NCBI GenBank assembly: GCA_965222075.1
Contig: OZ244937.1
Span: 5,024,001 to 5,088,000, forward strand
From: Candidatus Latescibacterota bacterium
GTDB taxonomy: Bacteria; Latescibacterota; UBA2968; GCA-2709665
Reading direction: 5' to 3'
Length of the DNA stretch: 64,000 nt
Positions within the stretch are counted from its first letter, which is position 1; the number at the start of each line of letters is the position of its first letter. The notes beneath the pieces are model-generated. The model searched no databases and had not been told where the DNA came from. It worked only from the letters and a program-made list of their open reading frames with translations. The position numbers were made by a program, and so were the translations under genes. Shown here in pieces: positions 7,252 to 37,420 of this stretch.

Positions 7252-7253
7252 GC

Positions 7254-15621: not shown

Positions 15622-16341
15622 ATGAGAAAGTGTAAAGTTGTCAGTTTCGTTGTGGTGGCGCTCCTGCTGAGTTCGACGGTGGTTGTCTACGGCCAAAGTG
15701 CGGGTGCAAGCTGGGGTGTGGGCGCATTTTTGGACTATAACCGGTCGCTGTTCAAGATGAAAGACTGGTTTGACGACGGGCAGGGCAAAGTGGGGGTGGT
15801 CTTCACCTACGTGGTGGGTCCCAAGGTGAGCGTGGAGGTGGAGTATAGCCGTTCCAGGTTCACCAACGGGAGCCTTCAGGAGCGCACGTTCACGTGGGGT
15901 GTAGACGGTAAGGACTACCTCTCGCCTGGTGCGGTGAGCCAGATGACGATGAACAATTTTTTGGTGAATGGGATCATCCGGAGGACTGGCGCGGAGGTTC
16001 TTCGTCAGGGGAGTTATGCGCCCTATTTGACGGTGGGTGCTGGGTTTTACGATTATTCGACGGATGTTCGGAATTTGATTTATCCGGGTCAGAAGACGGC
16101 GCCTTTGGACCAGGCGTTGAAGCTGGATGCGTTCAGTGACACGCGCACGGCGCTTGGAGTGAACGCGGGTTTGGGGGTAGAGGGATTTGTGTTCGACAAT
16201 ATGGCTGTGGATCTTCGTCTTCGGTATAATGTGTTGTTGGGTGAGCTTCGTCCCATGGAGGCGTGGGGGATAGAGGGGCAGACGTTTCCGATGCAGTTTT
16301 GGAATGTTCGGGGAGGGTTGAGGTTTTATTTTGCGCGGTAG
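15622..16341 (+). CDS. Small outer-membrane beta-barrel protein, copy 1
   Basis: GGAGGAG RBS, signal peptide, PYLTVGAGFY, LGVNAGLGVE, C-terminal GGLRFYF. Confidence 0.85.
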   Translation: MRKCKVVSFVVVALLLSSTVVVYGQSAGASWGVGAFLDYNRSLFKMKDWFDDGQGKVGVVFTYVVGPKVSVEVEYSRSRFTNGSLQERTFTWGVDGKDYLSPGAVSQMTMNNFLVNGIIRRTGAEVLRQGSYAPYLTVGAGFYDYSTDVRNLIYPGQKTAPLDQALKLDAFSDTRTALGVNAGLGVEGFVFDNMAVDLRLRYNVLLGELRPMEAWGIEGQTFPMQFWNVRGGLRFYFAR

Positions 16342-16414
16342 GTCGTCGTTCGTTGTAGGGGATTGGTATCTCGTAGAAGCACACCAGAAGAAACGAGCGA
16401 CGATGTGAGCTGGG
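15664..16414 (+). repeat. About 750 bp near-identical repeat (copy at 30085-30835)
   Basis: Direct comparison at offset 14421; about 7 substitutions counted by eye. Confidence 0.95.
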
Positions 16415-16431
16415 GAAAAGAAAAGGAGGAG

Positions 16432-19400
16432 ATGATGAGAAGGTTACAGATTTTGACAGGGATCGTACTTGCGCTGTGCGCTGTTCTGGCGATGGGCAGT
16501 GTGGCCACGGCAGGGACCACCGGGAAGGTGATGGGTGTTGTGATGGATGAGAAGGGAGATCCGCTGCCGGGGGCCAGCGTGGTGTTTGAGGGCACCCAGC
16601 GAGGCGCCGTTACCGATGCGGATGGGGCCTATATCCTCCTGTCGGCGGATCCCGGGGTCTACAGAGCGGTGGCCTCGATGGTGGGGTACCATACGGTGAC
16701 CCAGGAGCAGGTACAGGTGCGGGCGGAGTTCACCACGACGGTGAATTTCACGCTTCGAGAGCAGGAACTGGCGCTGGAGGAGATGGTGGTGGTGGCGGAG
16801 CGCCCGCCGGTGGAACCGGACAAGACAGAGAGCCGGTATGTGATAACGGCCAAGGATATCGAGCAGGCGCCGATCCTGCGAACGGTCAGCGATGTGATCA
16901 CGCTGGAGGCCGGCGTGGCCACCGACGGCACCGGCGCGATCCGGTCGGGGAATTTGCCGGACAACGGCTACTATGTGGACGGGATCCGGATACAAAACCA
17001 GGATGGGAAGGCCATTTACACCAGCTACGGGTGGAACCAGTGGGGACAGAATGTCAATGCGAAGGCGGTGCAGGAGATCTCCCTGATAACCGGTGGGCTG
17101 AATGCCGAGTACGGAAACGCGCAGGCCGGAGTGGTGAACATCATCACCAAGGATGGCGGGTCTGAGTACCACGGCGAGGTGGAATACCGGCTCACCCCTG
17201 CTGGGAAGAAGCACTGGGGAGCGGATGTTTACGAGGCGCCTGAGCACCGGGGGAATGCGAAGTGGGACGACCCGGAGTGGGTGGCGGAGGTGGATCCCCA
17301 GACGGGGAATCTGGTGCACCAGCGGACCAACTACACGAACTGGCGCGGACATCACTACGACGGTCATTTCAGCGGTCCGCTGCTTGGACAATCGTCCTTT
17401 TTCGTCAGCGCGATGCACCGACGGGCCGCGCCGGCTACCCCCAACGCGTGGGGGAAGCACCAGCCGCCCAACATCCGCACAACGGCAAAGCTGACGGTTC
17501 CGGGCGGATCGAACATGAAGTTCCGGTTCGGCTGGATCTACGACTACGCGGAAGATCACCAGGACGGCCGCACCGGCGGCACCACGTCCAACACGCCCAA
17601 CGTGCTGAGGGGCACGGGTCGGAACCTGTTCCTGCCGGTGGGGTCGCCAGCGGCGACGAGGGAGGTTACGGAGAACCTGCTCTACGGCGCGCTGACCCAC
17701 ACGGTCAGTCCAAAGACGTTTTATGAGGTGCGGTTATCGCGGTATTTAAGCAGGCAGGACACCAGCAAGCCGGGGACCATGACCTCACACGTCAGGAATG
17801 ACAAGGCAGGGTACTTCCACATCGGCCGGGATGAGGTCCTGGACTTTCGGATCGGCGAGCAGAACCGACTCGGCCTCAAGGCCGACCTGTCGAGCCAGGT
17901 CACGAAGGGGCACTTCATCAAGGCCGGGATCGATTACACGGCGTACGAAAACTGGTATTCCTGGGAGGCCAATACGCCCGGGGATACGAAGCAGCAGATC
18001 GTCTACATCGCCGACGGGGAGCCGGGCAATGCGATCAATCCGAAGCAGCTCGCCCTCTACGTCCAGGACAAGATGGAGTTTGAGGGCTTTACCGTGAACG
18101 CGGGCATCCGCTACGACCGGTTCTGGGGCGTGGATGTGCCGCTGATGGGCGCGATGCGGAAGTTCGTTTACAACAGGATGAACCGCTACATTCAGGCGCC
18201 TTTCTTGCCGATGCGGCCGATCGCCAACTGGAGCCCGAGGGTCGGGATCGCGCATCCGATCACGGACAGGGCGGCCCTGCACTTTTACTACGGGCACCTG
18301 TTCCAGCTCCCGAGTTTCTTCCCGATGTTCCACGAGGAGTGGTCGGGTACCGGTGGGCCGATTCAGGATATCAAGTGGAGCAACTACAACCAGACCTACC
18401 GGCCTGCCGGCACGGCCGGGGTACGGCCGATCTGGGACGACTCACAGCGGACGATCAGCTTTGAGTTGGGTACCGACTGGAACTTCGTGAGCGACTATAC
18501 GGTGGCGCTGGCCACCTTTTACAAGACCGCGTTTTTCCAGGATACGGGGGGTGCGAATATCACCTACAATCCGGGCACGAAGGTAAATGACTTCATCTCC
18601 TCCTATTCCAACACGTGGATGGAGGAGATTCGGGGCTTTGAGTTCAGCATCCGGAAGAGGTTTAGAAACTACTTCTCGTTCCGGGCGGCGCTAAACATCG
18701 AGTGGGCGGAGGAGGGTCAGGGTGGAGGTGGGAATGCCGCGGTCGCCGAAACTGCGTTCCCGGATTCCGCCTGGATTGTCGGCAGCGGGTACTACTTCCT
18801 CGACTGGGAGATCTCCGGCGGCCAGGAGCGTGGGGTGCCGCTCACGGATGAGCAGAAGCGGGAGATTGGCGCACAGGCCAATGCCGTCGTAAAGGACTTG
18901 CAGGCGAATCCCCTAAAGTATGTACAGGGGGCATCCGAACCGGGTCGGCTCTTCGCGGCCTGGGAGCAGGACTGGATGTCGGGCGAGACCCAGCAGGCGT
19001 CTGAGGGCATCTACCTGCTTCTCAATCTGCAGGGCGTCAGCCGGCGCGACAGGGGGCGGGCCGGACAGGGTAGCTTTCAGTTCTTTTTCGAGTCCCCGAT
19101 GGATTTAGGACCGGGTCCGAAGTTCGGCGGGCGCACCCTCTTAGGCGGCGTGCGTGCGAACCTGCTCTACCGGATCTACACCGGATCGAAGTTCGAGTAC
19201 GTCAACCTCGACGCGGTCAACGCAAAGGCGAGGGGGCCTTTGCACACGCGAGCGGATCTGAACGTGCAGAAGCGCTTTCAGGTCGGCGGCGTATCCGCCG
19301 ACCTCTACGTGGAGGTGTCCAATCTGTTCGATCAGAAGGACGCCAGAGCCACGAATGAGGACTACATGTGGTGGGGGCTGCAGACTCCAAAGCCCAACGA

Positions 19401-19494
19401 CGATGCCTACCTGACGTATGGGGATGTCTCGGATCGGACGCGCTTCCTGGACCGTCCGCGGGAGTCCCACGTGGGCATTCGGGTTATATTCTAG
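16432..19494 (+). CDS. TonB-dependent receptor 1 (CarboxypepD_reg-like N-domain)
   Basis: GKVMGVVMD..GDPLPGASV, plug AVQEISLITGGLNAEYGNAQAGVVNIITK, YVQDKMEF, NAGIRYD, SPRVGIAHPIT, C-terminal F. Confidence 0.93.
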   Translation: MMRRLQILTGIVLALCAVLAMGSVATAGTTGKVMGVVMDEKGDPLPGASVVFEGTQRGAVTDADGAYILLSADPGVYRAVASMVGYHTVTQEQVQVRAEFTTTVNFTLREQELALEEMVVVAERPPVEPDKTESRYVITAKDIEQAPILRTVSDVITLEAGVATDGTGAIRSGNLPDNGYYVDGIRIQNQDGKAIYTSYGWNQWGQNVNAKAVQEISLITGGLNAEYGNAQAGVVNIITKDGGSEYHGEVEYRLTPAGKKHWGADVYEAPEHRGNAKWDDPEWVAEVDPQTGNLVHQRTNYTNWRGHHYDGHFSGPLLGQSSFFVSAMHRRAAPATPNAWGKHQPPNIRTTAKLTVPGGSNMKFRFGWIYDYAEDHQDGRTGGTTSNTPNVLRGTGRNLFLPVGSPAATREVTENLLYGALTHTVSPKTFYEVRLSRYLSRQDTSKPGTMTSHVRNDKAGYFHIGRDEVLDFRIGEQNRLGLKADLSSQVTKGHFIKAGIDYTAYENWYSWEANTPGDTKQQIVYIADGEPGNAINPKQLALYVQDKMEFEGFTVNAGIRYDRFWGVDVPLMGAMRKFVYNRMNRYIQAPFLPMRPIANWSPRVGIAHPITDRAALHFYYGHLFQLPSFFPMFHEEWSGTGGPIQDIKWSNYNQTYRPAGTAGVRPIWDDSQRTISFELGTDWNFVSDYTVALATFYKTAFFQDTGGANITYNPGTKVNDFISSYSNTWMEEIRGFEFSIRKRFRNYFSFRAALNIEWAEEGQGGGGNAAVAETAFPDSAWIVGSGYYFLDWEISGGQERGVPLTDEQKREIGAQANAVVKDLQANPLKYVQGASEPGRLFAAWEQDWMSGETQQASEGIYLLLNLQGVSRRDRGRAGQGSFQFFFESPMDLGPGPKFGGRTLLGGVRANLLYRIYTGSKFEYVNLDAVNAKARGPLHTRADLNVQKRFQVGGVSADLYVEVSNLFDQKDARATNEDYMWWGLQTPKPNDDAYLTYGDVSDRTRFLDRPRESHVGIRVIF

Positions 19495-19589
19495 CAAGGT
19501 TGAGACCCGGGGCCTGGGGTGCTGACGGTTCAGCGTCCGGGACCCGGGCAGGTTAGGACATCACGATGGATGAAAGAGAGGAGAATGAG

Positions 19590-21836
19590 ATGAAAAAGGT
19601 TCATACAATCGGGGCGGTTGCCGTCCTGCTCGGCCTGCTGGTTTGGGGTCTGCCCGGTGCGCACGCGGACAACCTGCCGTGGCGGTTTCAGACCCGCGCG
19701 AAGGTGTGGGATATCCACTGGAACACGGGTACTCAGGGGGTTCGGGAGGGCTCATTCCTGACCTATTATCGGCCGATCGGGATGATGTACCCCGGCACGT
19801 TCATGGTGCAGTTTTCAAACGAATTCATCGACTACTGGGGCGTGCGGAGTTGGGCGGGAGCCACGCAGTGGCTCGCCTGGATGTACGAGATGGGGGCCGT
19901 TATGCCGGGGTTCGACACGTTCGTTGTGACGCGTGTGCCCGGATCCCCGGATGGGGAGTATCACGTGGCCGAATCCAAACCGACCTTCGAATCTGAGGAC
20001 ATCGTTCCGCTCGAATACGACCCGTCCCAGGGGCCGGAGGCGAGCATCGGGTATCCGAACTATTCCCCGCGGGGCCCGGCGATGGCCAACTGGTGGCCGG
20101 GGCAGCAGCCGCCTGGGGATCAGCCCATGGTCGAGATCCACAACTACCGGAAAGATCAGTACATGGATCCCGACAAGGATATGTTCCCCGAGAGTCTGAT
20201 GATCGCCCATTACGCCACCAAGCGGGGGATCAATGTAACCAAACGGGTGCTGGCGTGGGGCTATCCGGACTACGACGACTTTGAGATTGTGGACTATACG
20301 TTTGAGAACACCGGGGACCAGCAGCTCAACGACACCTTCTTTGCCTTCTCGGTCCGCTTCATGGTCTCGCACGCCGGGCACATGTGGCACGGGTACAACG
20401 CCTGGTACCGGAACACGAACCCGACCACGGATTCGGACGACCTCTACAAGTACACGGAGGCGTCCAACTACGACGGTCCCGCGTCGGGGGCGGGGCTGAA
20501 GATGTGGTATGCGTTCGACACGGACAACCCGCTGGTGCCGGGGGACGACCTGGGCCAGCCCTACAGCGTGGGCCAGGCCAGGTGGCATAACCGGGTAGGG
20601 AACATGCGGATCGAGGGCGAGATGACGGGCTACCAGTACGGGGGGCTTGCGCCGCTGGCCTACATGCCCGGGGCCGCCAACGATGCGAGTACGTGGACCT
20701 ACGATTCGAACACGTGGGAGACCGGCGACGCCAACTACGTGGCGCCCAGGGTGGCGGACCAGCCCTACAAGGTGGCCTGGACGGATTACCGCAACCGGGG
20801 CGACTACGACCAGCCGGACTCAAAGACCCATTCCTACGAAACCATGTACAACATGCTGGCCGGCGCCCCCGGCATCCAGGCCCCCCCCACAGAACCGACC
20901 GCGATCCACGGGACGACGACCTACGGGCCCTACGACTTAGCGCCCGGAGACAAGGTGAGGCTCGTATTCGTTCTGGCGGCGGCCGCCCCTGTGGAGGAGA
21001 ACATCTGGGGATGGGCGAAGCTGGGCGACCAGGATGTGATGCGCACGGATAGGACGTTCGACAACTTGGTCAAGCACGTGAACGCGGCCAAAGACGCCTT
21101 CGCGTGGGGCTACGATGTGCCCGATCCCCCGCCGGACGTGGGTACCACGGCGGGTGTGTCGGATGGCGGGTTTAATAAGCTGAGCTGGAACTCAGCTTAC
21201 GGCAGTGCCTCCGATCCTGACTACACGGGCGCTGAGGCCAATGACATCGCGGGCTATCGGGTCTACCGGTCGGAGTTTAAAGTAGGCGACTGGAAGCTTC
21301 TGGGCGATATCCCCGTTGGAACTGCCAACGAATTTGTGGACGAGAAGTCGATCGCCGGATTTACTTATTTCTACAGCGTCCGGGGCTACGATAAGGGGCA
21401 CGATGACTGGAACGGGACCGGGATGGCCATTCCCTCCTTAGAGGGTTCGAATAGCTCTCCCGAGACGTGGTCGAACGGCGTCCAGCCTCAGATCCCGTAT
21501 GTGCCGGCCACGTCTGGGGCAGATGCGATGCAGAAGCAGGTAATCGTGGTGCCCAACCCGTACAAGGTGGACGGTGCCCACGCCTACCCGGCGAGGGGCC
21601 GGATCCGGTTTTTGAATATTCCGCACAAGTCCCGAATCTGGATCTACACGATCTCCGGGGACCTTGCAGCCCGGGTCGACCACGACGATCCGACAAAGGG
21701 CGAGGCGAACTGGGAACAGGTCGACATCCACGTCACCGGATCGGTCTCCCCTGGCATGTATTACTACGTGGTTGAATCGCTTCTGCCGGAGAGCCAGGGG
21801 AAGATCCAGAAGGGTGCCTTTATGATTATCAAGTGA
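19590..21836 (+). CDS. Secreted protein 1 with FN3-like module and T9SS-like C-terminal domain
   Basis: SPI-type signal (AHA, no lipobox); LSWN..AGYRVYRS..YFYSVRGYD; VIVVPNPY..IRFLNIP..IYTISGDL..GMYYYVV..FMIIK. Confidence 0.8.
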   Translation: MKKVHTIGAVAVLLGLLVWGLPGAHADNLPWRFQTRAKVWDIHWNTGTQGVREGSFLTYYRPIGMMYPGTFMVQFSNEFIDYWGVRSWAGATQWLAWMYEMGAVMPGFDTFVVTRVPGSPDGEYHVAESKPTFESEDIVPLEYDPSQGPEASIGYPNYSPRGPAMANWWPGQQPPGDQPMVEIHNYRKDQYMDPDKDMFPESLMIAHYATKRGINVTKRVLAWGYPDYDDFEIVDYTFENTGDQQLNDTFFAFSVRFMVSHAGHMWHGYNAWYRNTNPTTDSDDLYKYTEASNYDGPASGAGLKMWYAFDTDNPLVPGDDLGQPYSVGQARWHNRVGNMRIEGEMTGYQYGGLAPLAYMPGAANDASTWTYDSNTWETGDANYVAPRVADQPYKVAWTDYRNRGDYDQPDSKTHSYETMYNMLAGAPGIQAPPTEPTAIHGTTTYGPYDLAPGDKVRLVFVLAAAAPVEENIWGWAKLGDQDVMRTDRTFDNLVKHVNAAKDAFAWGYDVPDPPPDVGTTAGVSDGGFNKLSWNSAYGSASDPDYTGAEANDIAGYRVYRSEFKVGDWKLLGDIPVGTANEFVDEKSIAGFTYFYSVRGYDKGHDDWNGTGMAIPSLEGSNSSPETWSNGVQPQIPYVPATSGADAMQKQVIVVPNPYKVDGAHAYPARGRIRFLNIPHKSRIWIYTISGDLAARVDHDDPTKGEANWEQVDIHVTGSVSPGMYYYVVESLLPESQGKIQKGAFMIIK

Positions 21837-21901
21837 GCCCCCAGGGGCTGCGTTCACCTGCTGGAAATTCTCTCGACGGGATTGGAAAAGGAGATAGAGC
21901 T

Positions 21902-22873
21902 ATGAAACGCGTTTTGATGTTCGGACTGATAGGCTTGGCAATCTGCGCACTGGTTGCGCCGCCGCCCGCTGCCGGTCAGGAGGAGGTAATCAGTACCGGT
22001 CAGAAGCGGGTGGGGCGGGCTGTGCTGTCGGTGCTGAAGGTGGATCAGGGAGCACGCGCCGCTGGGATGGGCGGGGCGTATGTGGCCATTGCGGATGACA
22101 TCAACACAGTTTTTGTGAATCCGGCCGGGTTGACCCACGTTGAGCGGGCTGAGTATACGTTTTCTTACACCCGCTGGCTGGTGGATTCCAAATTTTACTC
22201 AGGCGCGGTGGCCTACAATGTTGAGCGGGGCGTCTTAGGGTTGAGTGTGTTCGCTCATTCGCCGCCTAAGATGCTGGAGACAACGATCTTCCAGCCCTTG
22301 GGCACGGGCCGAGAGTTGGATGCAGGGGATGTTAGCATCGGTCTGACATTCGCCAGGAAATTGACGGACAGGCTCTCATTCGGCGTGCAGGTGCGCTGGA
22401 CGCAGGAGACCCTGGATGTGGACCGGATCAGCTCGGTGGATATGAATCTGGGGACGCTGTTCTACACGGGCTACCGGTCTCTGCGGCTGGGGATGACGTT
22501 TTTGAACCTGGGGAAGGACCAGAAGATCCTGGAAACGGAATACCACCTGCCGGTGGCGTTCAATCTGGCCACTGCAATGGAGATCATAGGCAATAAAGGC
22601 GACCAGACCTACCTCACCGCGACGGTCGAGAACTACTTCGCTACCGATTTTGCAGAACCGCAGTATCGGTTAGGCGGTGAGCTCTGGTTCCAGAACACGG
22701 TGGCGCTCCGGGGTGGCTATCGGATCAACTACGACCTGGAGACGTTCAGCGTGGGGGCGGGGGTGAAGTTCCAGCCGGTTGAGGGCAGAGAGATCCGTGC
22801 GGATTTCGCGTACAGCGATTTCGGCAGGTTTTTCGATGCGCCGCTACGGTTTAGCCTGAGCGGATCGTTCTAA
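21902..22873 (+). CDS. PorV/PorQ (UPF0164) family outer-membrane barrel 1
   Basis: LKVDQGARAAGMGGAYVAIADD..NPAGL, G.EL WFQNTVALRGGY pattern, C-terminal F. Confidence 0.87.
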   Translation: MKRVLMFGLIGLAICALVAPPPAAGQEEVISTGQKRVGRAVLSVLKVDQGARAAGMGGAYVAIADDINTVFVNPAGLTHVERAEYTFSYTRWLVDSKFYSGAVAYNVERGVLGLSVFAHSPPKMLETTIFQPLGTGRELDAGDVSIGLTFARKLTDRLSFGVQVRWTQETLDVDRISSVDMNLGTLFYTGYRSLRLGMTFLNLGKDQKILETEYHLPVAFNLATAMEIIGNKGDQTYLTATVENYFATDFAEPQYRLGGELWFQNTVALRGGYRINYDLETFSVGAGVKFQPVEGREIRADFAYSDFGRFFDAPLRFSLSGSF

Positions 22874-22903
22874 CCGGCCCATCGTGTCCACGGACGATAT
22901 GGT

Positions 22904-22941
22904 GAAATGGCAGTCTGTAAAAGGACTGCCATTTCTCTTTT
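22904..22941 (+). terminator. Intrinsic terminator closing cassette 1
   Basis: GAAATGGCAGTC/GACTGCCATTTC followed by TCTTTT. Confidence 0.75.
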
Positions 22942-23017
22942 ACGAGGTTCTGAACGATTTGTCTCAGGGGCAGACCTGTGTGTCTGCTACGAAGAATCGG
23001 GCAAGAAGATAGGGGGC

Positions 23018-25456: not shown

Positions 25457-25512
25457 GCGCAACCCAACCTCTTCCCTAAACGAAGTTTGATAAATTAGTC
25501 GGAGGGTAGAAT

Positions 25513-26565: not shown

Positions 26566-26577
26566 GGAGGAGCAGAT

Positions 26578-27504: not shown

Positions 27505-27514
27505 CCTGTCCGGC

Positions 27515-28923: not shown

Positions 28924-29143
28924 TGGTTGCTCCATATATATTGAAGCTATGGTGTCTGATGGGTTTGCCTTCATTCGTAATGTAATGTTTGAACTGTTCC
29001 GGAACAAGCTTTTTATGCTAAGAGGAGGGTGATGTGGTAGCATCCAGGGCCGGGTCTTCAGGAGACCGGGAAGAAAATCAAAAACTGTTTGCATTACTCA
29101 CCAGGAATTTTAAAACAGCTTCTTAGAATCCATAAAAAACCGC

Positions 29144-29209
29144 TTGACAACGAAGAATTGGGATCTTATCTTTCTTCCAGGTTGATTAATCAGTTAATTA
29201 GTTAATCAG
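29144..29209 (+). promoter_or_regulatory. Promoter and candidate GntR operator
   Basis: TTGACA-17 bp-TATCTT; downstream TGATTAATCA palindrome within TTAATCAG-TTAATTAG-TTAATCAG. Confidence 0.6.
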
Positions 29210-29261
29210 AAATACGGCCGGTGGGTGCATTTGTACAGGCTGGTGTTCAGGATATAACATA

Positions 29262-29951
29262 TTGATTCAGGAGGATTTAGTGGTAAGACAGCGTTTTGAC
29301 GGTCAGGCATCCCACGCGTACAAGACGCTACGGCACTGGATTTTGAGCGGCAACCTCGCTCCAGGTTCAAGGATCAACGTGCGAGAATCCATCGCCGAGT
29401 TGGGCACCAGCAACGGTCCAGTGCGCGATGCCCTCATCCAGCTCAGGAGTGAGCACCTGGTCCAGGGAGGGCACGGGCAGAACTGGACGGTGACCCGGGT
29501 AACACGTGAGATGATCGACGAGGGAATGATTGTGCGGGAAGGGCTGGAGGCACAGAGCGCGCGGTGCTGCGCGGTGTCGGCGACGCCGATGGGTATCCAA
29601 AGGCTGATGAAGCTTGCCGAGGAGCTCGACGACCGAGTTGAAGCGGGGCTGGACGCTGACGACTTGACGACTGAACTGGACGAACGCTTCCATCTCATGG
29701 TTGCAGAGACGGCCGGATGTGGCTGGCTCCGTGAAGAGATCAAACGCTGGACAGTTGTCATGACGTGGGCCGGACGGTTCATTGGCAACCTTAAAACGAA
29801 AGGTGAGAGTCACGTGGAGGTCGTCCGGGCGATCGCGACCGGGGACCCCGATGCAGCCGGCAGGCAGATGCGGCAGCACATCCTTCATCCGTGGCAGGAA
29901 ATGAAGTGGGAAGTGCACGAAACGGCCACACCGAAATCGGCTGTTGGTTGA
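29262..29951 (+). CDS. GntR (FCD-type) transcriptional regulator
   Basis: AYKTLRHWILSGNLAPGSRI..ELGTSNGPVRDALIQL; LDERFHLMV; HVEVVRAIATGD..MRQHI. Confidence 0.92.
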   Translation: MIQEDLVVRQRFDGQASHAYKTLRHWILSGNLAPGSRINVRESIAELGTSNGPVRDALIQLRSEHLVQGGHGQNWTVTRVTREMIDEGMIVREGLEAQSARCCAVSATPMGIQRLMKLAEELDDRVEAGLDADDLTTELDERFHLMVAETAGCGWLREEIKRWTVVMTWAGRFIGNLKTKGESHVEVVRAIATGDPDAAGRQMRQHILHPWQEMKWEVHETATPKSAVG

Positions 29952-30045
29952 GCGCACAGTTAAGCACATAAAATGGTCAGCCGGATCGTCTGGCTGCGGA
30001 TGTTTTATACGTAAGAAGCTGCTTGGAGCCGGAAGGAGGTAGGGT

Positions 30046-30762
30046 ATGCGAAAGGTCGTTTTGGGATGTCTGGCGATGGTGTTTCTGCTGAGTTCGACGG
30101 GGGTTGTCTACGGTCAAAGTGCGGGTGCAAGCTGGGGTGTGGGCGCATTTTTGGACTATAACCGGTCGCTGTTCAAGATGAAAGACTGGTTTGACGACGG
30201 TCAGGGCAAAGTGGGGGTGGTCTTCACCTACGTGGTGGGTCCCAAGGTGAGCGTGGAGGTGGAGTATAGCCGTTCCAGGTTCACCAACGGGAGCCTTCAG
30301 GAGCGCACGTTCACGTGGGGTGTAGACGGTAAGGACTACCTCTCGCCTGGTGCGGTGAGCCAGATGACGATGAACAATTTTTTGGTGAACGGGATCATCC
30401 GGAGGACTGGCGCGGAGGTTCTTCGTCAGGGGAGTTATGCGCCCTATTTGACGGTGGGTGCTGGGTTTTACGATTATTCGACGGATGTTCGGAATTTGAT
30501 TTATCCGGGTCAGAAGACGGCGCCTTTGGACCAGGCGTTGAAGCTGGATGCGTTCAGTGACACGCGCACGGCGCTTGGGGTGAACGCGGGTTTGGGGGTA
30601 GAGGGATTTGTGTTCGACAATATGGCTGTGGATCTTCGTCTTCGGTATAATGTGTTGTTGGGTGAGCTTCGTCCCATGGAGGCGTGGGGGATAGAGGGGC
30701 AGACGTTTCCGATGCAGTTTTGGAATGTTCGGGGAGGGTTGAGGTTTTATTTTGCGCGGTAG
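30046..30762 (+). CDS. Small outer-membrane beta-barrel protein, copy 2
   Basis: Mature protein identical to 15622-16341; only the signal peptide differs; AAGGAGG RBS. Confidence 0.87.
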   Translation: MRKVVLGCLAMVFLLSSTGVVYGQSAGASWGVGAFLDYNRSLFKMKDWFDDGQGKVGVVFTYVVGPKVSVEVEYSRSRFTNGSLQERTFTWGVDGKDYLSPGAVSQMTMNNFLVNGIIRRTGAEVLRQGSYAPYLTVGAGFYDYSTDVRNLIYPGQKTAPLDQALKLDAFSDTRTALGVNAGLGVEGFVFDNMAVDLRLRYNVLLGELRPMEAWGIEGQTFPMQFWNVRGGLRFYFAR

Positions 30763-30931
30763 GTCGTCGTTCGTTGTAGGGGATTGGTATCTCGTAGAAG
30801 CACACCAGAAGAGACGAGCGACGATCTGAGCTGGGAGAAAGGAGGGCGGGAGTGGCGTAAAGACTTTCTGTTCAGAATTTCGTATTCCGGGGGGAATGAG
30901 ATTCTATTACCCGTAAAGTAAGGAGGAACAG

Positions 30932-33900
30932 ATGAACAAGTTGAAGATAGGTTTGGGAGCTGTGCTTGCGCTGTGCGCTGTTTTGGCGCTGGGCAGTGTA
31001 GCTACGGCAGGGACGACCGGGAAGGTGATGGGCAATGTGATGGACGAGAAGGGAGATCCGCTGCCGGGGGCCAGCGTGGTGCTTGAGGGCACCCAGCGGG
31101 GGGCGACGACGGATGCGGATGGGTTCTACGTGATCGTTTCGATGGACCCCGACGTGTATAAGGCCACGGCGTCGATGGTGGGCTACCATTCGTCGACCCA
31201 GGAGCAGGTGGTCGTGCGAGCGGATTTCACGACGACGTTGAATTTCCGTCTCCGGGAGCAGGCACTGGAGTTGGAGGAGATGGTGGTGGTGGCGGAGCGC
31301 CCGCCTGTGGAGCCGGACAAGACGGAGAGCCGGTATGTGGTGAGCTCCGAACAAATCCGGCGGACGCCTATCATACGGGACGTTCAACAGTTCGTGGAGC
31401 TGGAGGCCGGAGTCGCGGTGGACGGCACCCAGTTCCTCCGGGGTGCCCCGCCCGACGAAACCTCCTTTGTCGTGGATGGTCTCCGGATGCAGCAGTCGGA
31501 CAAGCGTATCTACAGTGGATTAGACTCGGGAAGCTACCTGAGCTGGAACGCCCCGGGCACAGCCTGGTGGATGGGCGTCAACACCGATGCAGTGCAGGAG
31601 ATCTCCGTTATCACCGGCGGAATGAACGCCGAATACGGAAATGCGATGTCCGGCGTGGTGCAGCTGGTCACCCGGGACGGGCAATCGGACTACCACGGCG
31701 AGGTGGAGTACCGGCTCACCCCTGCGGGCAAGAAGCACTGGGGAACGAACGTGTACGACGCGCCCGAGCACAAAGGCAACGCGAAATGGGACGACCCGGA
31801 GTGGGTTTCCGAGGTGGATCCCGAGACGGGAAGGCTGGTCCACCAGCGGCTGAGCTACACCGACTGGCGCAGCCATTACTACGACGGCTTTCTAAGCGGT
31901 CCGCTGCTTGGACAATCGTCCTTTTTCGTGAGCGCCCGGCACGTGGATCAGGCTGCACCCCTTCCAGGGCGCGCGAACCGCACGCCGACGAATATCCGGA
32001 CCACGGCAAAGTTGACGATTGCGCCAGGGTCGAATGTCAAGTTCCGGTTGGGGTGGGTCTACGACTATTCAGAGTACTGGCGGGGCGGCCGGTCGCCCAA
32101 TTGGGCCGGCGTTACCAACGTAACCAGGTCAACCGGGCGGCACCTGTTCATCCCGGACGGGTCCCCGGGGGGGAAGGTCCCCAGTCCCGAGAACATGCTC
32201 TATGCCACCTGGACCCACACCGTCAGTCCGAAGACGTTTTACGAAATCAAGGTGTCGCACTACGTAAGCAGGGAGGACAGCAGCGAGACGACGGGGAAGA
32301 CGACCTCGGATCAGAGGACCGACAAATCGGGCCATTTCTACCTCGGCCGGGAAAGGATGTGGAATTATACCATCGCCGAGCAGAAGAGGACCACCCTCAA
32401 GGTCGACCTTTCCAGCCAGTTCAGGAAAGGGCACTTCATCAAGACGGGAGTCGAGTTCGTAAAGTACAGCAACTGGTTTACCTGGGAGGTCATGTTTCCC
32501 GACGGGCAGAAGGCCATCGAATTCATCGGGAAAGGTGGCGTGCCAGGGGAGGGGCAAACACCCACTGAGCTGGGGTTTTACGTCCAGGATAAGATGGAAT
32601 TTGAAGGGCTGATCGTGAACGCGGGCCTCCGCTTCGACATGTTCTATGGCATAGATGCGCCGTTTTACGGCGGGTTCAGGAGCTTCATGTACGATTCGGT
32701 GTCAAAATTCCAGCACATCCCCTACTCCCGCCTGGAGCCGTGGACAAGCTGGTCTCCCCGCCTGGGGATCTCCCATCCGATCACGGACAGATCGGCCATG
32801 CACTTCTCCTACGGCCACTTTGCGCAGACTCACGGCTTCCGGCGCATGTTTCAGGAGATGTGGCTGACCGCCGGCAAAGTCGGGATTCCGGGCGTTCCTT
32901 TCAGCGAGTACGTGCAGCCAAAGTGGCCTAGCGGGACGACTGCGCTCTGGCCGTCGTTTGACCTGCCGCAAAAGAAGATCAACACCGAGGTGGGCGTGGA
33001 CTGGAACTTTGTGAGCGACTATGTGGTCACGCTGGCTACCTTCTACAACAGCGGCATAAACCAGGAAGCCGGACAATGGCAGAATCTCCGTAATCCGTTT
33101 ACCAAAGGGCGGTTGTATGTCAGCGGCACAGGGGCGACCTGGTGGGAAGACTCCCGGGGCTTCGAGTTCAGCCTGAGGAAAGGCTTCAGCCACCACTTCG
33201 CGTTCCGGGCCGCGTTCAACCTTGAGTGGACGGGCGAGTATTACGGCGGAAAGGGCACAAGCTCGATCGGGTTGGGCGTTGCGATGGACTCCACCTTTAT
33301 CCTGAACAGCCCGATCATGGTGGAGTGGGAAGAGGGGGACGGGTTTCAGCGGCCGGTGCCGATGTCGGAGGCGAGGCGGAGAGAGGCCCTCGCTGGCGCG
33401 ATGAATGCGCAGGATGTATCCGCCACGGGTACGGCGATTGTCTTTTACTCGGGTGACACCGAGACCAAGACATTCGACAACCGTCCGAACCTGAGCGATG
33501 AAACCCGGGCAGCCGCTCAAGGACTGTATTACCTGGAGGATTGGCTGGGGGGCAACAGAGACGACATAACGGCGGGGAAGCGGAGCCAGGGCAGCCTGCA
33601 GATGTTCTTCTCTACCCCCGCAGACCTCGGAGTGGGACCCAGGATTGGCGGAAGCACTCTTCTGGGCAACCTGCGGGCGAACCTGATCTACCGGATCTAT
33701 ACCGGTTCGAAATTCAAGTACCCGACCCTGGACGGGAAGTCAACCTACTCGAGGGGTCCTCTGCACACCAACGTTGATCTGAGCGTGCAGAAGCGCCTCA
33801 ACCTGGGAAAGGTGAATGCGGACCTGTTCGTGGAGGTGTTAAACCTGTTCGATCAGAAGGACGCGAGCGCCTCCGGCACCAGCTACATGTACTATGGACT

Positions 33901-34015
33901 CCAGATACCCCCCCCTGACGATGCCGCGTATCTGGAATTCGGGGACGTCTCAGACCGGTCGCGCTATCTTGGCAGTCCCCGGGAGTCGCACGTGGGCATC
34001 CGGTTGAGTTTCTAA
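30932..34015 (+). CDS. TonB-dependent receptor 2
   Basis: Paralog of receptor 1; AVQEISVITGGMNAEYGNAMSGVV, YVQDKMEF, C-terminal VGIRLSF. Confidence 0.93.
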   Translation: MNKLKIGLGAVLALCAVLALGSVATAGTTGKVMGNVMDEKGDPLPGASVVLEGTQRGATTDADGFYVIVSMDPDVYKATASMVGYHSSTQEQVVVRADFTTTLNFRLREQALELEEMVVVAERPPVEPDKTESRYVVSSEQIRRTPIIRDVQQFVELEAGVAVDGTQFLRGAPPDETSFVVDGLRMQQSDKRIYSGLDSGSYLSWNAPGTAWWMGVNTDAVQEISVITGGMNAEYGNAMSGVVQLVTRDGQSDYHGEVEYRLTPAGKKHWGTNVYDAPEHKGNAKWDDPEWVSEVDPETGRLVHQRLSYTDWRSHYYDGFLSGPLLGQSSFFVSARHVDQAAPLPGRANRTPTNIRTTAKLTIAPGSNVKFRLGWVYDYSEYWRGGRSPNWAGVTNVTRSTGRHLFIPDGSPGGKVPSPENMLYATWTHTVSPKTFYEIKVSHYVSREDSSETTGKTTSDQRTDKSGHFYLGRERMWNYTIAEQKRTTLKVDLSSQFRKGHFIKTGVEFVKYSNWFTWEVMFPDGQKAIEFIGKGGVPGEGQTPTELGFYVQDKMEFEGLIVNAGLRFDMFYGIDAPFYGGFRSFMYDSVSKFQHIPYSRLEPWTSWSPRLGISHPITDRSAMHFSYGHFAQTHGFRRMFQEMWLTAGKVGIPGVPFSEYVQPKWPSGTTALWPSFDLPQKKINTEVGVDWNFVSDYVVTLATFYNSGINQEAGQWQNLRNPFTKGRLYVSGTGATWWEDSRGFEFSLRKGFSHHFAFRAAFNLEWTGEYYGGKGTSSIGLGVAMDSTFILNSPIMVEWEEGDGFQRPVPMSEARRREALAGAMNAQDVSATGTAIVFYSGDTETKTFDNRPNLSDETRAAAQGLYYLEDWLGGNRDDITAGKRSQGSLQMFFSTPADLGVGPRIGGSTLLGNLRANLIYRIYTGSKFKYPTLDGKSTYSRGPLHTNVDLSVQKRLNLGKVNADLFVEVLNLFDQKDASASGTSYMYYGLQIPPPDDAAYLEFGDVSDRSRYLGSPRESHVGIRLSF

Positions 34016-34046
34016 CGAGCATTTGTCCAAAGCCCGAAGATCGTAA

Positions 34047-34087
34047 TCTCCCGCAGGGGCGGGTTTGAAACCTGCTCCTGCGGGAGA
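34047..34087. repeat. REP-like palindrome
   Basis: TCTCCCGCAGGGGCGGGTTTGAAACCTGCTCCTGCGGGAGA hairpin. Confidence 0.6.
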
Positions 34088-34146
34088 GGAAAAAACACCC
34101 ATCCTCGGGCCTTAAAGACGACGATCGACGAAGGAGGTTCAGGATC

Positions 34147-36375
34147 ATGAAAAAGATCACAATCTGCGGGGCGGTGTACCTGCTTCTGGGCCTGCTGCTG
34201 TGGGGCCCGTCCCCGGTGGACGCACAGCGGTCGAAGCACCGCTTCCAGACCCGCGCCAAGCTGTGGAATACCTACTGGAACGTGGGCAGCCAGGGAATAT
34301 GGAGCTCGGACCTTGTCAGCCTTTACCGCGCGTTGAGCATGAACTATCCCGGCAATTACGTTACCGATTTTCAGTACGAGGGCCCGGATTACTACGGAGG
34401 CCCGAGGATCTGGCCCGGCATCTCGAATTATTTGACCGCAAACGTGGAGATGAATATACTCTCCGCGGGCCTCGAGACCTTTGTCGCCACGGTGGCGAAC
34501 GGGGAGTATTACGTGTCGGAGACCAAAGTCGACAAGGACCCCCCGGAGATCACTATGTTGGCCTACGACCCTTCGGCGGGGCCGGAGGCGAACATCGGCT
34601 ACCCGACCTATGCCCCCCTGGGCATGGCGATGGCCAACTGGTGGCCCGGGCAGCCGCCCCCAGGGCAGGATACGCCGGTGGAGATCCTCAACTACCGGTA
34701 TGGCCAGTACATGGACCCGGACAAGGACACGTTTCCGGAGAGCATCATCATCTCTCACTACTCCACAAAGCACGGGGTTACGGTCACCCGAAAGGCCTAC
34801 GCGTGGGGCTACCCGGACTACGACGACTTCGAGATTTTGGAGTTTACGTTCGAAAACACCGGGAGTAATCAGCTCAACGACACCTTCATCGCACTCTCGA
34901 CCCGGTGGATCATTTCACAGCGCGGCTGGCGGTGGCAGGCCGGCACGAGTGATTTCCGGACGGAGAATGACCTGATGCACGACGACTGGAACAAATACAC
35001 GGAGGCGGGCAACTACGACGGCCCGGCTTCGGGGGTGGGGCTGAAGTTGTGGTACGGCTACGACGGAGACTCCCCGATTACGGTGTCGGACGACCTGGGC
35101 GACCCATTCGACTCGGCCCGGATGAACGGATATGGATCGGCCAACTTCAAGAAGACCATTGTTGAGGGCGAGCTGATGGCCTACCAGCACGCAGGGTTTG
35201 CGCCGATCGCCTACACCCCCGGCGCCGACAACGATGCGGGCACGTGGACCTACGACACCGGGGGGGATGCGCGCTTTGTGGCGCCCGGGGTGGCCGACCA
35301 GCCGTATGCCTTCAGGTGGTGGCAATTCCGAACGAGGACTGACTTCGACAATCCCGATTCCGGGACCTCATCCTTCGAGAAGATGTATAACGATCTCTCC
35401 GGGGCACCCGGGATTATGGACAACCCGCCCTCGGTGGATGGGGTGCACGGGACCTTCACCTACGGTCCCTACGACCTGGCGCCCGGCGACAAGGCGAGGA
35501 TCGTGGTGGCTCTGGTGGCGGCCGCCCCGGTGGAAGAGAACATGTGGGGATGGGCCGTGCAGGGCAAACAGGGCGAACTGCGCACAGACAAGGGGTTCGA
35601 CAACCTGGTCAAACACCTGAACAAGGCCAGGGAGGCCTTCGATTGGGACTACGACCTGCCCGATCCCCCGCCGGATGTGAAGGTGACATCGGGTGTCACC
35701 TCCGACGCGACCAACCAGTTGACGTGGGACGACGCCGGGGCGACCGATCCGGACTATTCGGGCTCGGAAGCCCAGGATGTCGTTGGCTACCGGGTCTACC
35801 GGTCGGATAACAAGATAGACAACTGGGTGCTTTTTGCCGACATCCCGAAATCCGGGGCCTCTTACACCTATATGGACGAGAAGTCTGCCGCGGGGTTCGC
35901 GTATGACTACGCCGTCCGCGCTTACGATTCGGGGCATGCCGACTGGAACGGGACCGGCATGGAGATCCCCTCCCTTGAAGGCGGGAACAGTTCCCCCGAG
36001 CAGTGGGTGAACGGCGGCGTCAAATGGTCGATCCCGTTCGTGCCCCCCACCGCCGAGTCCGACCAGTTGCAAAGGAAGGTCCGGGTGGTGCCCAACCCGT
36101 ATTTCGATGACGGGGCGCACGCCTACCCGAACAAGGACAGGGTCCGCTTTCTCAATCTCCCGCACAAGTGCAAGGTGAAGATCTTCACAGCGGCCGGGGA
36201 TCTCTTAACGGAGTTCACGCACGACGATCCCTCTCGAGGCGAAACAAATTACGATATGATAACGAGGGATCTCATCGGAAAGGCATCCGCCGGCATCTAT
36301 CACTTCGTGGTCGAATCGCAGGTAGCGGGAAGCGTGGGCAAGATGCAGACCGGCACGTTTGTGATCATCAGGTGA
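34147..36375 (+). CDS. Secreted protein 2 with FN3-like module and T9SS-like C-terminal domain
   Basis: Paralog of 19590-21836; SPI-type signal (VDA); VRVVPNPY..VRFLNLP..IFTAAGDL..FVIIR. Confidence 0.8.
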   Translation: MKKITICGAVYLLLGLLLWGPSPVDAQRSKHRFQTRAKLWNTYWNVGSQGIWSSDLVSLYRALSMNYPGNYVTDFQYEGPDYYGGPRIWPGISNYLTANVEMNILSAGLETFVATVANGEYYVSETKVDKDPPEITMLAYDPSAGPEANIGYPTYAPLGMAMANWWPGQPPPGQDTPVEILNYRYGQYMDPDKDTFPESIIISHYSTKHGVTVTRKAYAWGYPDYDDFEILEFTFENTGSNQLNDTFIALSTRWIISQRGWRWQAGTSDFRTENDLMHDDWNKYTEAGNYDGPASGVGLKLWYGYDGDSPITVSDDLGDPFDSARMNGYGSANFKKTIVEGELMAYQHAGFAPIAYTPGADNDAGTWTYDTGGDARFVAPGVADQPYAFRWWQFRTRTDFDNPDSGTSSFEKMYNDLSGAPGIMDNPPSVDGVHGTFTYGPYDLAPGDKARIVVALVAAAPVEENMWGWAVQGKQGELRTDKGFDNLVKHLNKAREAFDWDYDLPDPPPDVKVTSGVTSDATNQLTWDDAGATDPDYSGSEAQDVVGYRVYRSDNKIDNWVLFADIPKSGASYTYMDEKSAAGFAYDYAVRAYDSGHADWNGTGMEIPSLEGGNSSPEQWVNGGVKWSIPFVPPTAESDQLQRKVRVVPNPYFDDGAHAYPNKDRVRFLNLPHKCKVKIFTAAGDLLTEFTHDDPSRGETNYDMITRDLIGKASAGIYHFVVESQVAGSVGKMQTGTFVIIR

Positions 36376-36422
36376 GGCCTACCAGAGGGCTTGCTGAGAC
36401 ACTGAAAGAAGGAGATAGAACC

Positions 36423-37373
36423 ATGAGACGAGCGTTTTGGACCGTCGTGACAGCGATGGCCGTTTGCACCCTGGTCTTTCCAGATGCCGTGCCTGCGGGG
36501 CAGAAGAAGGTGGGCGGTGTGACGATGCCTCTGTTGAAGATAGACCAGGGGGCGCGCATGAGCGGTATGGGGGGCAGTTATGCGGCCATCGGTGACGACA
36601 TCGGCATGATCCACGTCAATCCCGCGGGATTGACCCACGTTGAGCGAGGTGAATATTCGTTTTCCTACACACGCTGGCTGTCGAATTCCAAGTTTTACTC
36701 CGGCGTGGCCGCCTTCAAAACCGATTACGGTGTCGTCGGGTTGAGCGTGGTGTCACATACGCCCGAGGAGATGGAGGAGTCCACGATCTTCCAGCCAAAC
36801 GGCACGGGCCGGATGCTGGACATAGGCACGGTCAGCATCGGCGTGGCCTTTGCCAAGAAGTTGACGGACAGGCTGTCGTTCGGGTTTGTGGGCCGCTGGA
36901 CGTCGCAGAACCTGGACCTGGAAACGATTACCGTTTACGACATCAGCCTGGGGACGAAGTTCTACACGGGTTTCAAGAGCCTGCGGCTTGGGATGGCGTT
37001 TATGAACCTGGGGAAGGACATCAAGGTGTCCGGGGGTGAGACGCAGCTCATGCCGGTGGTCTTCAGTATTGCAGGAGCGATGGAGGCGTATGGGGAGGTG
37101 GGCGATCCGGCCTATCTGACCGTGACGGCAGAGAACTACTATGCCACGGACTATTCGGAGCCGCAGTACCGGCTGGGCGGTGAGGCCTGGTTTCAGAACA
37201 CCGTGGCGCTGCGCGCGGGGTATAAGTTCAACTACGATATCGAGACCTACAGCGTGGGGGCGGGCGTGAAGTTCCAGCCGGTGGAGGGCAAGGAGATTCA
37301 CGTGGACTTCTCCTACACGAAGTTCGATTTCTTCGATCCCCCGTTGCGGTTCACGCTGAGCGGGTCGTTTTAG
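36423..37373 (+). CDS. PorV/PorQ family outer-membrane barrel 2
   Basis: LKIDQGARMSGMGGSYAAIGDD..NPAGL; paralog of 21902-22873; AAGGAG RBS. Confidence 0.87.
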   Translation: MRRAFWTVVTAMAVCTLVFPDAVPAGQKKVGGVTMPLLKIDQGARMSGMGGSYAAIGDDIGMIHVNPAGLTHVERGEYSFSYTRWLSNSKFYSGVAAFKTDYGVVGLSVVSHTPEEMEESTIFQPNGTGRMLDIGTVSIGVAFAKKLTDRLSFGFVGRWTSQNLDLETITVYDISLGTKFYTGFKSLRLGMAFMNLGKDIKVSGGETQLMPVVFSIAGAMEAYGEVGDPAYLTVTAENYYATDYSEPQYRLGGEAWFQNTVALRAGYKFNYDIETYSVGAGVKFQPVEGKEIHVDFSYTKFDFFDPPLRFTLSGSF

Positions 37374-37420
37374 GCCACGGGGGGAAAGACACGGAAAGGA
37401 CAGCTGGGTCGATTGAAAGA

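Follow-up and report, generated by a model that had tools for sequence, protein, structure and literature searches.

Receptor, C-terminal-domain protein and PorV-family barrel in recurrent cassettes of a Latescibacterota genome: a putative SusD-free route for outer-membrane capture and import

SusC/SusD is the textbook model of polymer capture in Bacteroidota. Proteins can also be held at the outer membrane by barrels of the PorV type: in Porphyromonas, the C-terminal domain (CTD) of PorZ is retained to bind PorQ and PorU is held on PorV, and it has been proposed that cognate PorV-like barrels shield CTDs from cleavage and handle specific substrates (PMC10202324, in part). In Bacteroides, the FadL/PorV-like barrel BamG grips a surface protein by its loops (PMC12578637, in part). 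For the uncultured relatives of Bacteroidota (Latescibacterota, Marinimicrobia, Calditrichota, KSB1 and others), full-text searches, with subscription journals outside their reach, found no paper on how TonB receptors are fed without SusD and none describing an operon of receptor, CTD protein and PorV-like barrel; the accessible part of a 2015 genome paper on Latescibacteria brings up TonB for B12 and iron alone. Here, we describe such an arrangement in an uncultured, sponge-associated Latescibacterota bacterium whose genome is assembled in one contig of 5.36 Mb (completeness 97.6%, contamination 5.2%). The starting point is a window, that is, the whole stretch of 64,000 nucleotides (nt) that was analysed (GCA_965222075.1, contig OZ244937.1, positions 5,024,001 to 5,088,000), which holds two cassettes of a family with 20 copies in the genome. 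With slightly better than even confidence, we take this family to be a set of SusD-free outer-membrane capture-and-import modules, in which a binding protein is tethered through its CTD to a cognate PorQ-like barrel.

The two gene sets lie on the plus strand at 15.6-37.4 kb of the window and have an identical order: a small barrel, a TonB-dependent receptor, a secreted protein of ~745 amino acids (aa), hereafter called the cargo, and a barrel of the PorV/PorQ family. Open reading frames (ORFs) and family matches bear out this shared order over 15622-22873 and 30046-37373, as an earlier sequence-only reading of the window had it, and the terminator that it placed at the end of each set is there too, as a hairpin with a T tail.

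15622-16341, plus strand: small outer-membrane barrel 1, 239 aa; PF13505 at 28.8 bits, cut-off 28.7
16435-19494, plus strand: TonB-dependent receptor 1, 1019 aa; has a signal peptide, an N-terminal extension of the CarboxypepD_reg type, a plug and a large C-terminal region whose last residue is F
19590-21836, plus strand: cargo 1, 748 aa from an MKKV start; no Pfam or NCBIfam family
21902-22873, plus strand: PorV/PorQ-family barrel 1, 323 aa; NF033709 at 162.5 bits, cut-off 90
22904-22935, plus strand: terminator-like hairpin after cassette 1; 13-pair stem with 6 G-C pairs, T-rich tail
30046-30762, plus strand: small outer-membrane barrel 2, 238 aa; PF13505 at 27 bits, slightly below the 28.7 cut-off
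30932-34015, plus strand: TonB-dependent receptor 2, 1027 aa; PF13715 and PF07715
34147-36375, plus strand: cargo 2, 742 aa; 54% identical to cargo 1 over its full length
36423-37373, plus strand: PorV/PorQ-family barrel 2; NF033709 at 144.5 bits, start set by alignment to barrel 1
37415-37510, plus strand: long hairpin and a run of six T after cassette 2; -60.6 kcal/mol, z -5.83, equalled by 0/200 shuffles

Intergenic gaps within the cassettes measure 47-169 nt. The ORF of small barrel 1 is open from 15499, and 15622 is its likely true start. A consensus terminator scan, which missed the long hairpin at 37415-37510, gave no match directly after 37373.

Judged by their sequences, the two cassettes are true paralogues, with identities of 228/239 for the small barrel, 567/1035 (55%) for the receptor, 404/753 (54%) for the cargo and 201/331 (61%) for the PorV-family barrel. 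They had been described as a twice-repeated unit, and the repetition stands; the count was too low, since searches with cargo 1 and the PorV-family model, and then tblastn with each of the four cassette proteins, recover 20 colinear receptor-cargo-PorV triplets genome-wide. By tblastn, every cargo homologue in the genome has a receptor and a PorV-family barrel on its two sides. Cassette members account for 20 of the 23 genes that score above the NF033709 cut-off, and the 20 cassette receptors form a separate subfamily, with which the remaining receptors of the genome align solely over the N-terminal ~270 residues. Two cassette genes are or seem to be split – a cargo lying in two frames and a receptor matching in two separate pieces (G000 4437889-4440119 and 2089828-2093017) – and these may be pseudogenes or assembly errors. 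Thirteen of the 20 cassettes fall inside ~0.7 Mb across both contig ends (G000 4.92-5.36 Mb and 0-0.25 Mb), which would be one region if the chromosome is circular.

A synteny survey had been proposed as a check, and in the one made here, over Latescibacterota-type records, the gene order is kept. Out of 205 stretches found to encode a relative, 80 were kept for gene-order analysis; the record labels begin in Latescibacter for 66 of them, read Gemmatimonadota or Gemmatimonas for 12 and 'uncultured bacterium' for 2. The gene directly upstream is a receptor in 80/80 and the gene directly downstream is of the PorV family in 78/80, the exceptions being one contig edge and one miss. In sampled genomes of the phylum, the cargo profile is found at E <= 1e-20 in 57/151; broken down by family, it is found in 18/18 genomes of the source genome's own family, in 27/30 of its sister family and in 3/64 of the one after that. 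Further afield, at nine loci from five genomes that represent four other families of this phylum, 8/9 show the order of receptor, CTD protein and PorV-family barrel, and the alignable part of the cargo is reduced there to the FN3 domain and the CTD. With the head variable and FN3 plus CTD alone alignable in distant families, the conserved unit is therefore a receptor, a protein built as (variable head)-FN3-CTD, and a barrel. The protein family is a large one: with limits of E <= 1e-3, E <= 1e-10 and E <= 1e-30, its profile matches 5348, 2084 and 266 cluster representatives, respectively. None of 24 matches from a word-based search carried a Pfam domain or a name beyond 'hypothetical protein', and neither the cargo nor a homologue was present in the ESM Atlas.

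What, then, is the cargo? It had been proposed to be a Sec-exported protein other than a lipoprotein, and both window cargos do have an N-terminal signal peptide with an AxA-type site and no lipobox where the hydrophobic stretch ends. All 19 intact cargos of the genome begin with a signal peptide ending ..A-Q; in two of these, a Cys stands in surroundings that resemble a lipobox (LAAC, LLAC), and these two may be lipidated. Neither cargo 1 nor cargo 2 matches any Pfam or NCBIfam family, enzyme families included. The AlphaFold model of cargo 1 (pLDDT, the predicted local distance difference test, 81.4; pTM, the predicted template modelling score, 0.84; 24-row alignment) is all-beta save a few helices, and divides into three parts (residue numbers follow ORF translation P0001).

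Residues ~34-518, plus strand: head, a beta-supersandwich in the structure model
Residues ~520-610, plus strand: FN3-like domain in the structure model
Residues ~650-756, window 21513-21833, plus strand: CTD in the structure model

In this model, the head is a galactose-mutarotase-like supersandwich of the sort that GH94, GH116, GH15 and GH65 enzymes carry as a non-catalytic N-domain. VIA-align matches it to 4zle_A (Z 17.6, root-mean-square deviation (rmsd) 3.8, 254 aligned residues) and further to 5nz7_A (Z 17.2), 2cqs_A (Z 17.0) and 7w2t_A (Z 16.5), these matches spanning model residues ~31-575. A whole-model Foldseek search against the Protein Data Bank (PDB) gave many FN3 matches and low TM-scores (~0.2), because the target proteins bear additional catalytic domains. 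The head may bind or cleave carbohydrate. Of the earlier proposal of a substrate-binding protein at the surface, the model thus bears out a carbohydrate-binding type of fold; a role in binding is putative, the same fold being found in epimerase-like enzymes. The cargo might indeed be a surface or secreted enzyme, epimerase-, lyase- or hydrolase-like, with the rest of the module unchanged. Such an enzyme would fit the presence of true enzymes within this fold (aldose-1-epimerase-like chains match the head, more weakly, at Z 11-12.7) and the many polar residues that are invariant across 24 family members (E190, N193, Y199, E247, N248, D292, Y315 and D318). However, the best matches (Z 15-17.6) are non-catalytic N-domains, no enzyme family is found in Pfam or NCBIfam and the model of cargo 1 contains no (alpha/alpha)6 or other catalytic domain, so that we regard an enzymatic cargo as unlikely, if well worth weighing.

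Both window cargos end in the motifs VVPNPY..RFLN.P..I(Y/F)T..GDL..F.II(K/R), just as first quoted, and these had been read as a T9SS (type IX secretion system) CTD. The closest solved fold to residues 650-756 is the CTD of PorZ (5m11_A; VIA-align Z 10.8, rmsd 2.6, 89 aligned residues, 17% identity). When a profile of the 20 cargo CTDs is compared by hhalign with a profile of the 16 canonical CTDs (TIGR04183) of the same genome, the two align over 68 columns with 96.4% probability and E 1.3e-9, the PNP and GxY motifs being in register and an eight-residue insertion following PNPY. Together, the PorZ match and this profile homology uphold a T9SS-type CTD with a seven-stranded Ig-like beta-sandwich fold. 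The curated type A models, with which a search had been recommended, miss the cargos; homology emerges from comparison with the genome's own canonical CTDs. Since the cargos lack a TIGR04183 or PF18962 match and yet are homologous to canonical CTDs at the profile level, their tail is a divergent subclass of type-A CTD. Other comparisons were weak or empty: the last 104 aa of cargo 2 match the PorZ C-terminus at E 0.019 and FlgD_ig at E 0.041, the type-B marker CHU_C reaches only E 0.15 against the cargo tail, the genome-wide TIGR04183 search placed none of its 16 CTDs within the 20 cargos, and the cargo CTD profile searched against PDB sequences gave chance-level matches alone (V-ATPase subunit E, E ~0.8).

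The barrel encoded after the cargo belongs to the PorV/PorQ family without being a typical PorV or PorQ. The two window barrels score 162.5 and 144.5 bits on NF033709, whose cut-off is 90; they stay below the cut-offs of the PorV equivalog NF033710 (57.5 and 48.2 bits against 250) and of the PorQ equivalog NF033711 (68.3 and 49.4 bits against 220), and the PorP/SprF match, at 18.6 bits, is under its cut-off. Outside the cassettes, a lone gene (G000 3195776-3196732) reaches 163 bits with the PorV model, where the cassette copies score 48-57, and is, on these scores, likely to be the housekeeping PorV; the barrels of the cassettes are thus additional, dedicated copies. The claim that each cargo has a PorV-family barrel of its own thus holds in 20/20 cassettes of the genome, as it does in 78/80 related loci.

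Whether the two fit together was addressed with a complex model of barrel 1 (residues 26-323, 32-row alignment) and the tail of cargo 1 (residues 640-756, 24-row alignment). Three runs scored 0.90, 0.90 and 0.91, whereas none of three controls exceeded 0.00. Of solved complexes, 116/157 reach the mark used for such scores, and of mismatched pairs 2/215, counts that hold roughly here because our own alignments were supplied. The runs share at least 73% of contacts, partner pLDDT is at least 76, and the predicted interface is made by the conserved CTD motifs (residues 660-665, 692-701, 724-737 and 747-756). This supports a CTD sitting on the cassette's own barrel and agrees, as a prediction only, with the earlier idea that a PorV-family barrel holds it. 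The same result bears on a different view of the barrel, as a FadL-like channel through which a small substrate, hydrophobic or amphipathic, would pass; the barrel would then have no physical link to the CTD protein, and its place in the gene order would reflect co-regulation alone. PorV is a member of the FadL superfamily, and the cassette barrel has a weak Toluene_X match (27.3 bits, with a cut-off of 29.7). That barrels of the PorV type can serve outside T9SS is seen from BamG, but BamG itself holds a surface protein through its loops (PMC12578637, in part). With the predicted interface, and with the strict one-to-one pairing of barrel and CTD protein in both the genome and the related loci, a channel of this kind is extremely unlikely.

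In the genome, SprA is present, as three in-frame pieces with 618 bits summed, and so is a PorU-like gene of 1961 aa, which has a canonical CTD of its own and scores 212.8 bits, under the 420 cut-off. A search for sprA and porK/L/M/N/U, as first recommended, was thus rewarded for SprA and for a PorU-like gene below cut-off, and found no GldK/L/M/N above cut-off, with models on which no control genome scored above cut-off either. Nine TonB_C domains score above cut-off in the genome. The SusD models PF07980 and PF14322 found 0 matches genome-wide and none in the cargos, with Bacteroides thetaiotaomicron as a positive control, and, the cargo being all-beta, the system is SusD-free, as had been surmised.

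A secretion machinery of this kind would also suit a private shuttle, in which the barrel ferries its cargo from the SprA translocon to a PorU-type sortase, the CTD is cut, the protein is released or linked to a surface glycolipid, and cooperation with the receptor is indirect. The homology of the cargo CTD to canonical type-A CTDs, and the presence of SprA, of a PorU-like gene and of a separate PorV, speak for this, and PorV is known to carry cargo to an attachment complex in which PorU cleaves the CTD (PMC10202324, in part). Shuttles are normally shared, yet directly downstream of every one of the 20 cargos there is a separate barrel gene; the CTD is a distinct and well conserved subclass that the standard model does not see; and the closest solved fold, the CTD of PorZ, is a retained one, though the cargo CTD might still be cleaved. 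We consider a shuttle, the chief rival reading, improbable, to much the same degree as an enzymatic cargo.

The receptors are recognised from their N-terminal parts. Receptor 1 has PF13715 at 69.7 bits and both have the plug domain PF07715 at 33.1 bits (cut-off 23.9); sub-threshold NCBIfam receptor matches extend over residues ~536-819 (38 bits, cut-off 317). Neither is a SusC by the TIGR04056 (SusC/RagA) model, whose cut-off is 368.25 and on which they score 59.8 and 61.4 bits, with the alignment confined to the N-terminal extension and plug. Among PDB sequences, the receptor has a single match, to the N-domain of a SusC homolog (9hfj_A, E 6.7e-4). A receptor with a CarboxypepD_reg extension, plug and barrel has the architecture of Oar (PMC6434023, in part), which raises a further scenario: the TonB-dependent barrel could export the adjoining cargo, as Myxococcus Oar exports PopC, and the PorV-like barrel could then receive it. 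That T9SS motor genes were not found, in a search lacking a positive control, would be in keeping with such a route. On the other side, the cargo bears a T9SS-type CTD and SprA is present, SusC-type importers typically have this N-terminal extension too (and the sole PDB match is to one of these), and catabolic enzymes and substrate-responsive regulators at the loci fit import. PopC, moreover, apparently has neither a dedicated barrel nor a CTD in what is available of its description (PMC6434023, in part). Oar-type export is therefore very unlikely.

The small barrel is not a constant member of the cassettes. In the AlphaFold model of copy 1 (pLDDT 85.1) it has eight long strands, and Foldseek matches it to OmpA, OmpX, OmpW and NspA barrels, a likeness that is not informative on its role. 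It had been thought of as a fourth subunit, and for this it is at most a candidate: it is upstream in 10/20 cassettes of the genome and absent from the other 10, and present in 60/80 and absent from 20/80 of the related loci. The two window copies are identical from the conserved VVYGQSAG onward, and the mature proteins do not differ; their DNA is 98% identical over 300 nt (15656-15955 versus 30077-30376), against 69-84% for the other cassette DNA, and these near-identical operon 5' ends look like the outcome of gene conversion or recent exchange. A third copy (G000 5102583-5103299) is 99.6% identical. In the two receptors, too, the N-terminal ~145 residues resemble each other far more closely than the rest does. 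Two cassettes contain an extra protein of ~260 aa with a canonical TIGR04183 CTD, either between small barrel and receptor or just before the barrel, at these positions.

G000 7192-7437 and 134703-134930 (L121:7164-7955): extra CTD protein, TIGR04183

If the cassettes do serve surface capture and import, the ~750-850 aa cargo would be exported by Sec and would cross the outer membrane by a SprA-type (T9SS-like) route that recognises the divergent type-A CTD. The cassette's PorV/PorQ-family barrel would capture and retain this CTD, thus tethering the FN3 stalk and supersandwich head on the outside of the cell, next to the TonB-dependent receptor that is expressed with them. The head would bind, and perhaps trim, an oligo- or polysaccharide-type substrate, the receptor would import it on TonB energy, and adjoining DUF6785 membrane proteins and catabolic enzymes would process it further, under local GntR, LacI or sigma-54 regulators; the small eight-stranded barrel would be an optional accessory. 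In this scheme, we infer that the cargo is on the surface, that it keeps its CTD and that there is contact to the receptor, as in the earlier idea of a lid, along with the kind of ligand and which way transport runs; gene content and order, copy number, conservation, folds, CTD homology and a predicted interface are computed results.

The surroundings of the cassettes were surveyed over 155 ORFs that flank the other 18 cassettes, and in the window as well. Enzymes encoded there include sulfatases, heparinase II/III, pectate-lyase-like, RGL11-like (rhamnogalacturonan lyase) and PcRGLX-like proteins, GH127, GH130, GH67N/DUF4838, deacetylases and esterases. Among regulators, GntR occurs at 2 cassettes, LacI at 3, a Reg_prop/Y_Y_Y-sigma54 activator at 2 and a kinase/regulator pair at 1. 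The loci further encode many PhyH dioxygenases, homocysteine-S-methyltransferase-like proteins, GFO/IDH/MocA oxidoreductases, amidohydrolases and hydantoinases. Taken together, and going by these family matches, the setting fits nutrient catabolism with local sensing and is consistent with import. Features of the window and of other loci that belong to this setting are as follows (strand as given, minus strand marked where noted).

12587-15139, plus strand: TPR and GWxTD-domain protein, 850 aa, upstream of cassette 1; Pfam TPR and GWxTD_dom, TIGR04514 at 57.8 bits (cut-off 28)
L118:12840-16445, L121:14806-17568, L125:4291-6957 (minus strand) and L130:4478-6955 (minus strand): other TPR/GWxTD examples
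29262-29951, plus strand: GntR/FCD regulator, PF00392 and PF07729, upstream of cassette 2
47992-50274 and 50518-52485, plus strand: two DUF6785/DUF6784 polytopic membrane proteins, PF20581 and PF20580
L120:3437-5518, L122:3548-5539, L123:12931-15135 and L133:12565-14565: other DUF6785/DUF6784 examples
Window 10243-11034, 42408-43193 and 45808-46773; L119:12736-13674, L120:12497-13525 and L128:4946-6845 (minus strand); also L122, L123, L133 and L135: PhyH or homocysteine-S-methyltransferase-like genes

A large TPR protein (820-1310 aa) occurs in the flanks of 11/20 cassettes, with GWxTD in 9 of those and often directly after the PorV-like gene, and it may be a further component. The two DUF6785/DUF6784 proteins of the window, which have 9-10 hydrophobic segments by a rough Kyte-Doolittle count, are loosely linked to the window cassettes; the family, which has no NCBIfam name, is found in the flanks of 9/18 other cassettes, in some directly adjacent, and its members are candidate partners for the inner-membrane step of uptake. 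A GntR gene lies directly upstream of the cassette at locus L128, as it does at cassette 2. PhyH and homocysteine-S-methyltransferase-like genes are unusually common, some of them directly 3' of the PorV-like gene, and hint at non-glycan or modified substrates. Reg_prop and Y_Y_Y form the sensor part of Bacteroides hybrid two-component systems. Upstream of two cassettes (L126:1825-5271 and L127:1809-5255), regulators of 1149 aa combine Reg_prop beta-propellers, Y_Y_Y, a sigma-54 activator and HTH_8. Two paralogous proteins of ~820-850 aa in the window (22907-25456 and 57688-60153) have a weak Ig/FN3 match near the C-terminus as their sole match; the first is directly 3' of cassette 1, and its true start is probably downstream of the annotated ATG, because this falls within the terminator hairpin.

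The cassettes are also represented in RNA libraries. Four metatranscriptome runs, all from one study and labelled sponge metagenome, contain 77-82% of the sampled words of cassette 1, and contigs from these libraries cover both cassettes with 0-5 differing letters. The receptor 1-cargo 1 junction is spanned by contigs 18891-21304 and 18823-21261, the cargo 1-PorV 1 junction by 21416-22860, 21292-22763 and two more, and the cargo 2-PorV 2 junction by four contigs starting at 36207-36230. The contigs leave 23236-25903 uncovered, a gap that carries no inference.

Several points weigh against reading the cassettes as capture-and-import modules with a CTD-held binding protein, and explain why we hold it with the reserve stated at the outset. 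(i) For the receptor, the barrel region has no curated barrel match above threshold, and PF00593 is not found at E 0.01. (ii) For the cargo, neither the whole protein nor its last ~105 aa matches TIGR04183 or PF18962, even at E 10, so that its tail is not a canonical type-A signal; and with the supersandwich fold also found in true enzymes, the role of the head as a binding protein stays putative. (iii) For the complex, PorV-CTD assemblies have already been solved, so that the score may partly reflect likeness to solved structures, and the model says nothing on a preference for cognate over other CTD-barrel pairs. (iv) For secretion, GldL, GldM (TIGR03517, PF12081) and GldN were not found in the genome and the GldK matches are of the FGE-sulfatase type and under cut-off, no control genome having scored above cut-off for any of these models; a complete T9SS is therefore not demonstrated, and its absence, lacking a positive control, is likewise not shown. 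(v) For the substrate, many flanking genes are not carbohydrate-active enzymes (PhyH, homocysteine-S-methyltransferase-like, amidohydrolases, hydantoinases), so the substrates may not all be glycans. (vi) For expression, the RNA-library cover comes from one study, in which DNA carry-over is possible, and a contig over two genes is no proof of a single transcript.

These cassettes could have implications that reach beyond one genome. We suggest, tentatively and at somewhat less than an even chance, that in FCB (Fibrobacterota, Chlorobiota, Bacteroidota) group bacteria without SusD a CTD seated in a private PorQ-like barrel is a general mount for capture proteins on TonB importers, a modular 'stalk and socket' (FN3-CTD plus barrel) with swappable heads, which would be a counterpart or forerunner of the SusCD utilisome. 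Were this stalk-and-socket arrangement real, the 20 cassettes would be 20 substrate-specific surface machines. If the capture-and-import reading holds, parts of type IX secretion would have found a new use, as permanent surface anchors in nutrient capture. That reading would also (i) provide a simple genomic marker – receptor, CTD protein and PorV-like barrel – for substrate-utilisation loci outside Bacteroidota, and (ii) say what a large family of unannotated proteins does, both of which are relevant to research on polysaccharide utilisation and on type IX secretion.

Set beside the described systems, the cassettes share something with each. With the CTD cargos of type B and their PorP/SprF-like barrels (e.g. 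SprB-SprF in Flavobacteria), they share a cargo gene followed by its own dedicated barrel gene (PMC10202324, in part); here, however, the CTD is type-A-like, the barrel is of the PorV/PorQ family and the context is a TonB receptor instead of gliding adhesins. Oar of Myxococcus xanthus likewise has a CarboxypepD_reg extension, a plug with TonB box and a large barrel (PMC6434023, in part), but it exports a protease without CTD or dedicated barrel, whereas here the context suggests import and the neighbour has a T9SS-type signal. The PorZ-PorQ and PorU-PorV pairs of the Porphyromonas gingivalis attachment complex place a type-A-like CTD on a PorV/PorQ-family barrel, as predicted here (PMC10202324, in part). 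Those pairs, in contrast, are single-copy parts of a secretion machine and do not stand in receptor-cargo-barrel operons; in Latescibacterota the pair would be a 20-fold amplified accessory of TonB receptors, with a CTD that is presumably retained.

The closest functional parallel is with SusC/SusD (RagA/RagB) loci. In both, a TonB-dependent transporter with a CarboxypepD_reg-type extension is encoded beside a putative surface capture protein, and the pair is multiplied per genome (20 times here) amid catabolic enzymes and local sensors, including those with Reg_prop/Y_Y_Y domains. The differences are as marked: the genome has no SusD; the partner is a non-lipoprotein that is all-beta (supersandwich, FN3 and CTD), unlike the TPR-like helical lid; a third obligatory gene encodes the partner's own PorV/PorQ-family barrel; and the receptors reach ~60 bits on a SusC/RagA model whose cut-off is 368. 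The module probably does in Latescibacterota the job that SusC/SusD does in Bacteroidota, without being a member of that family.

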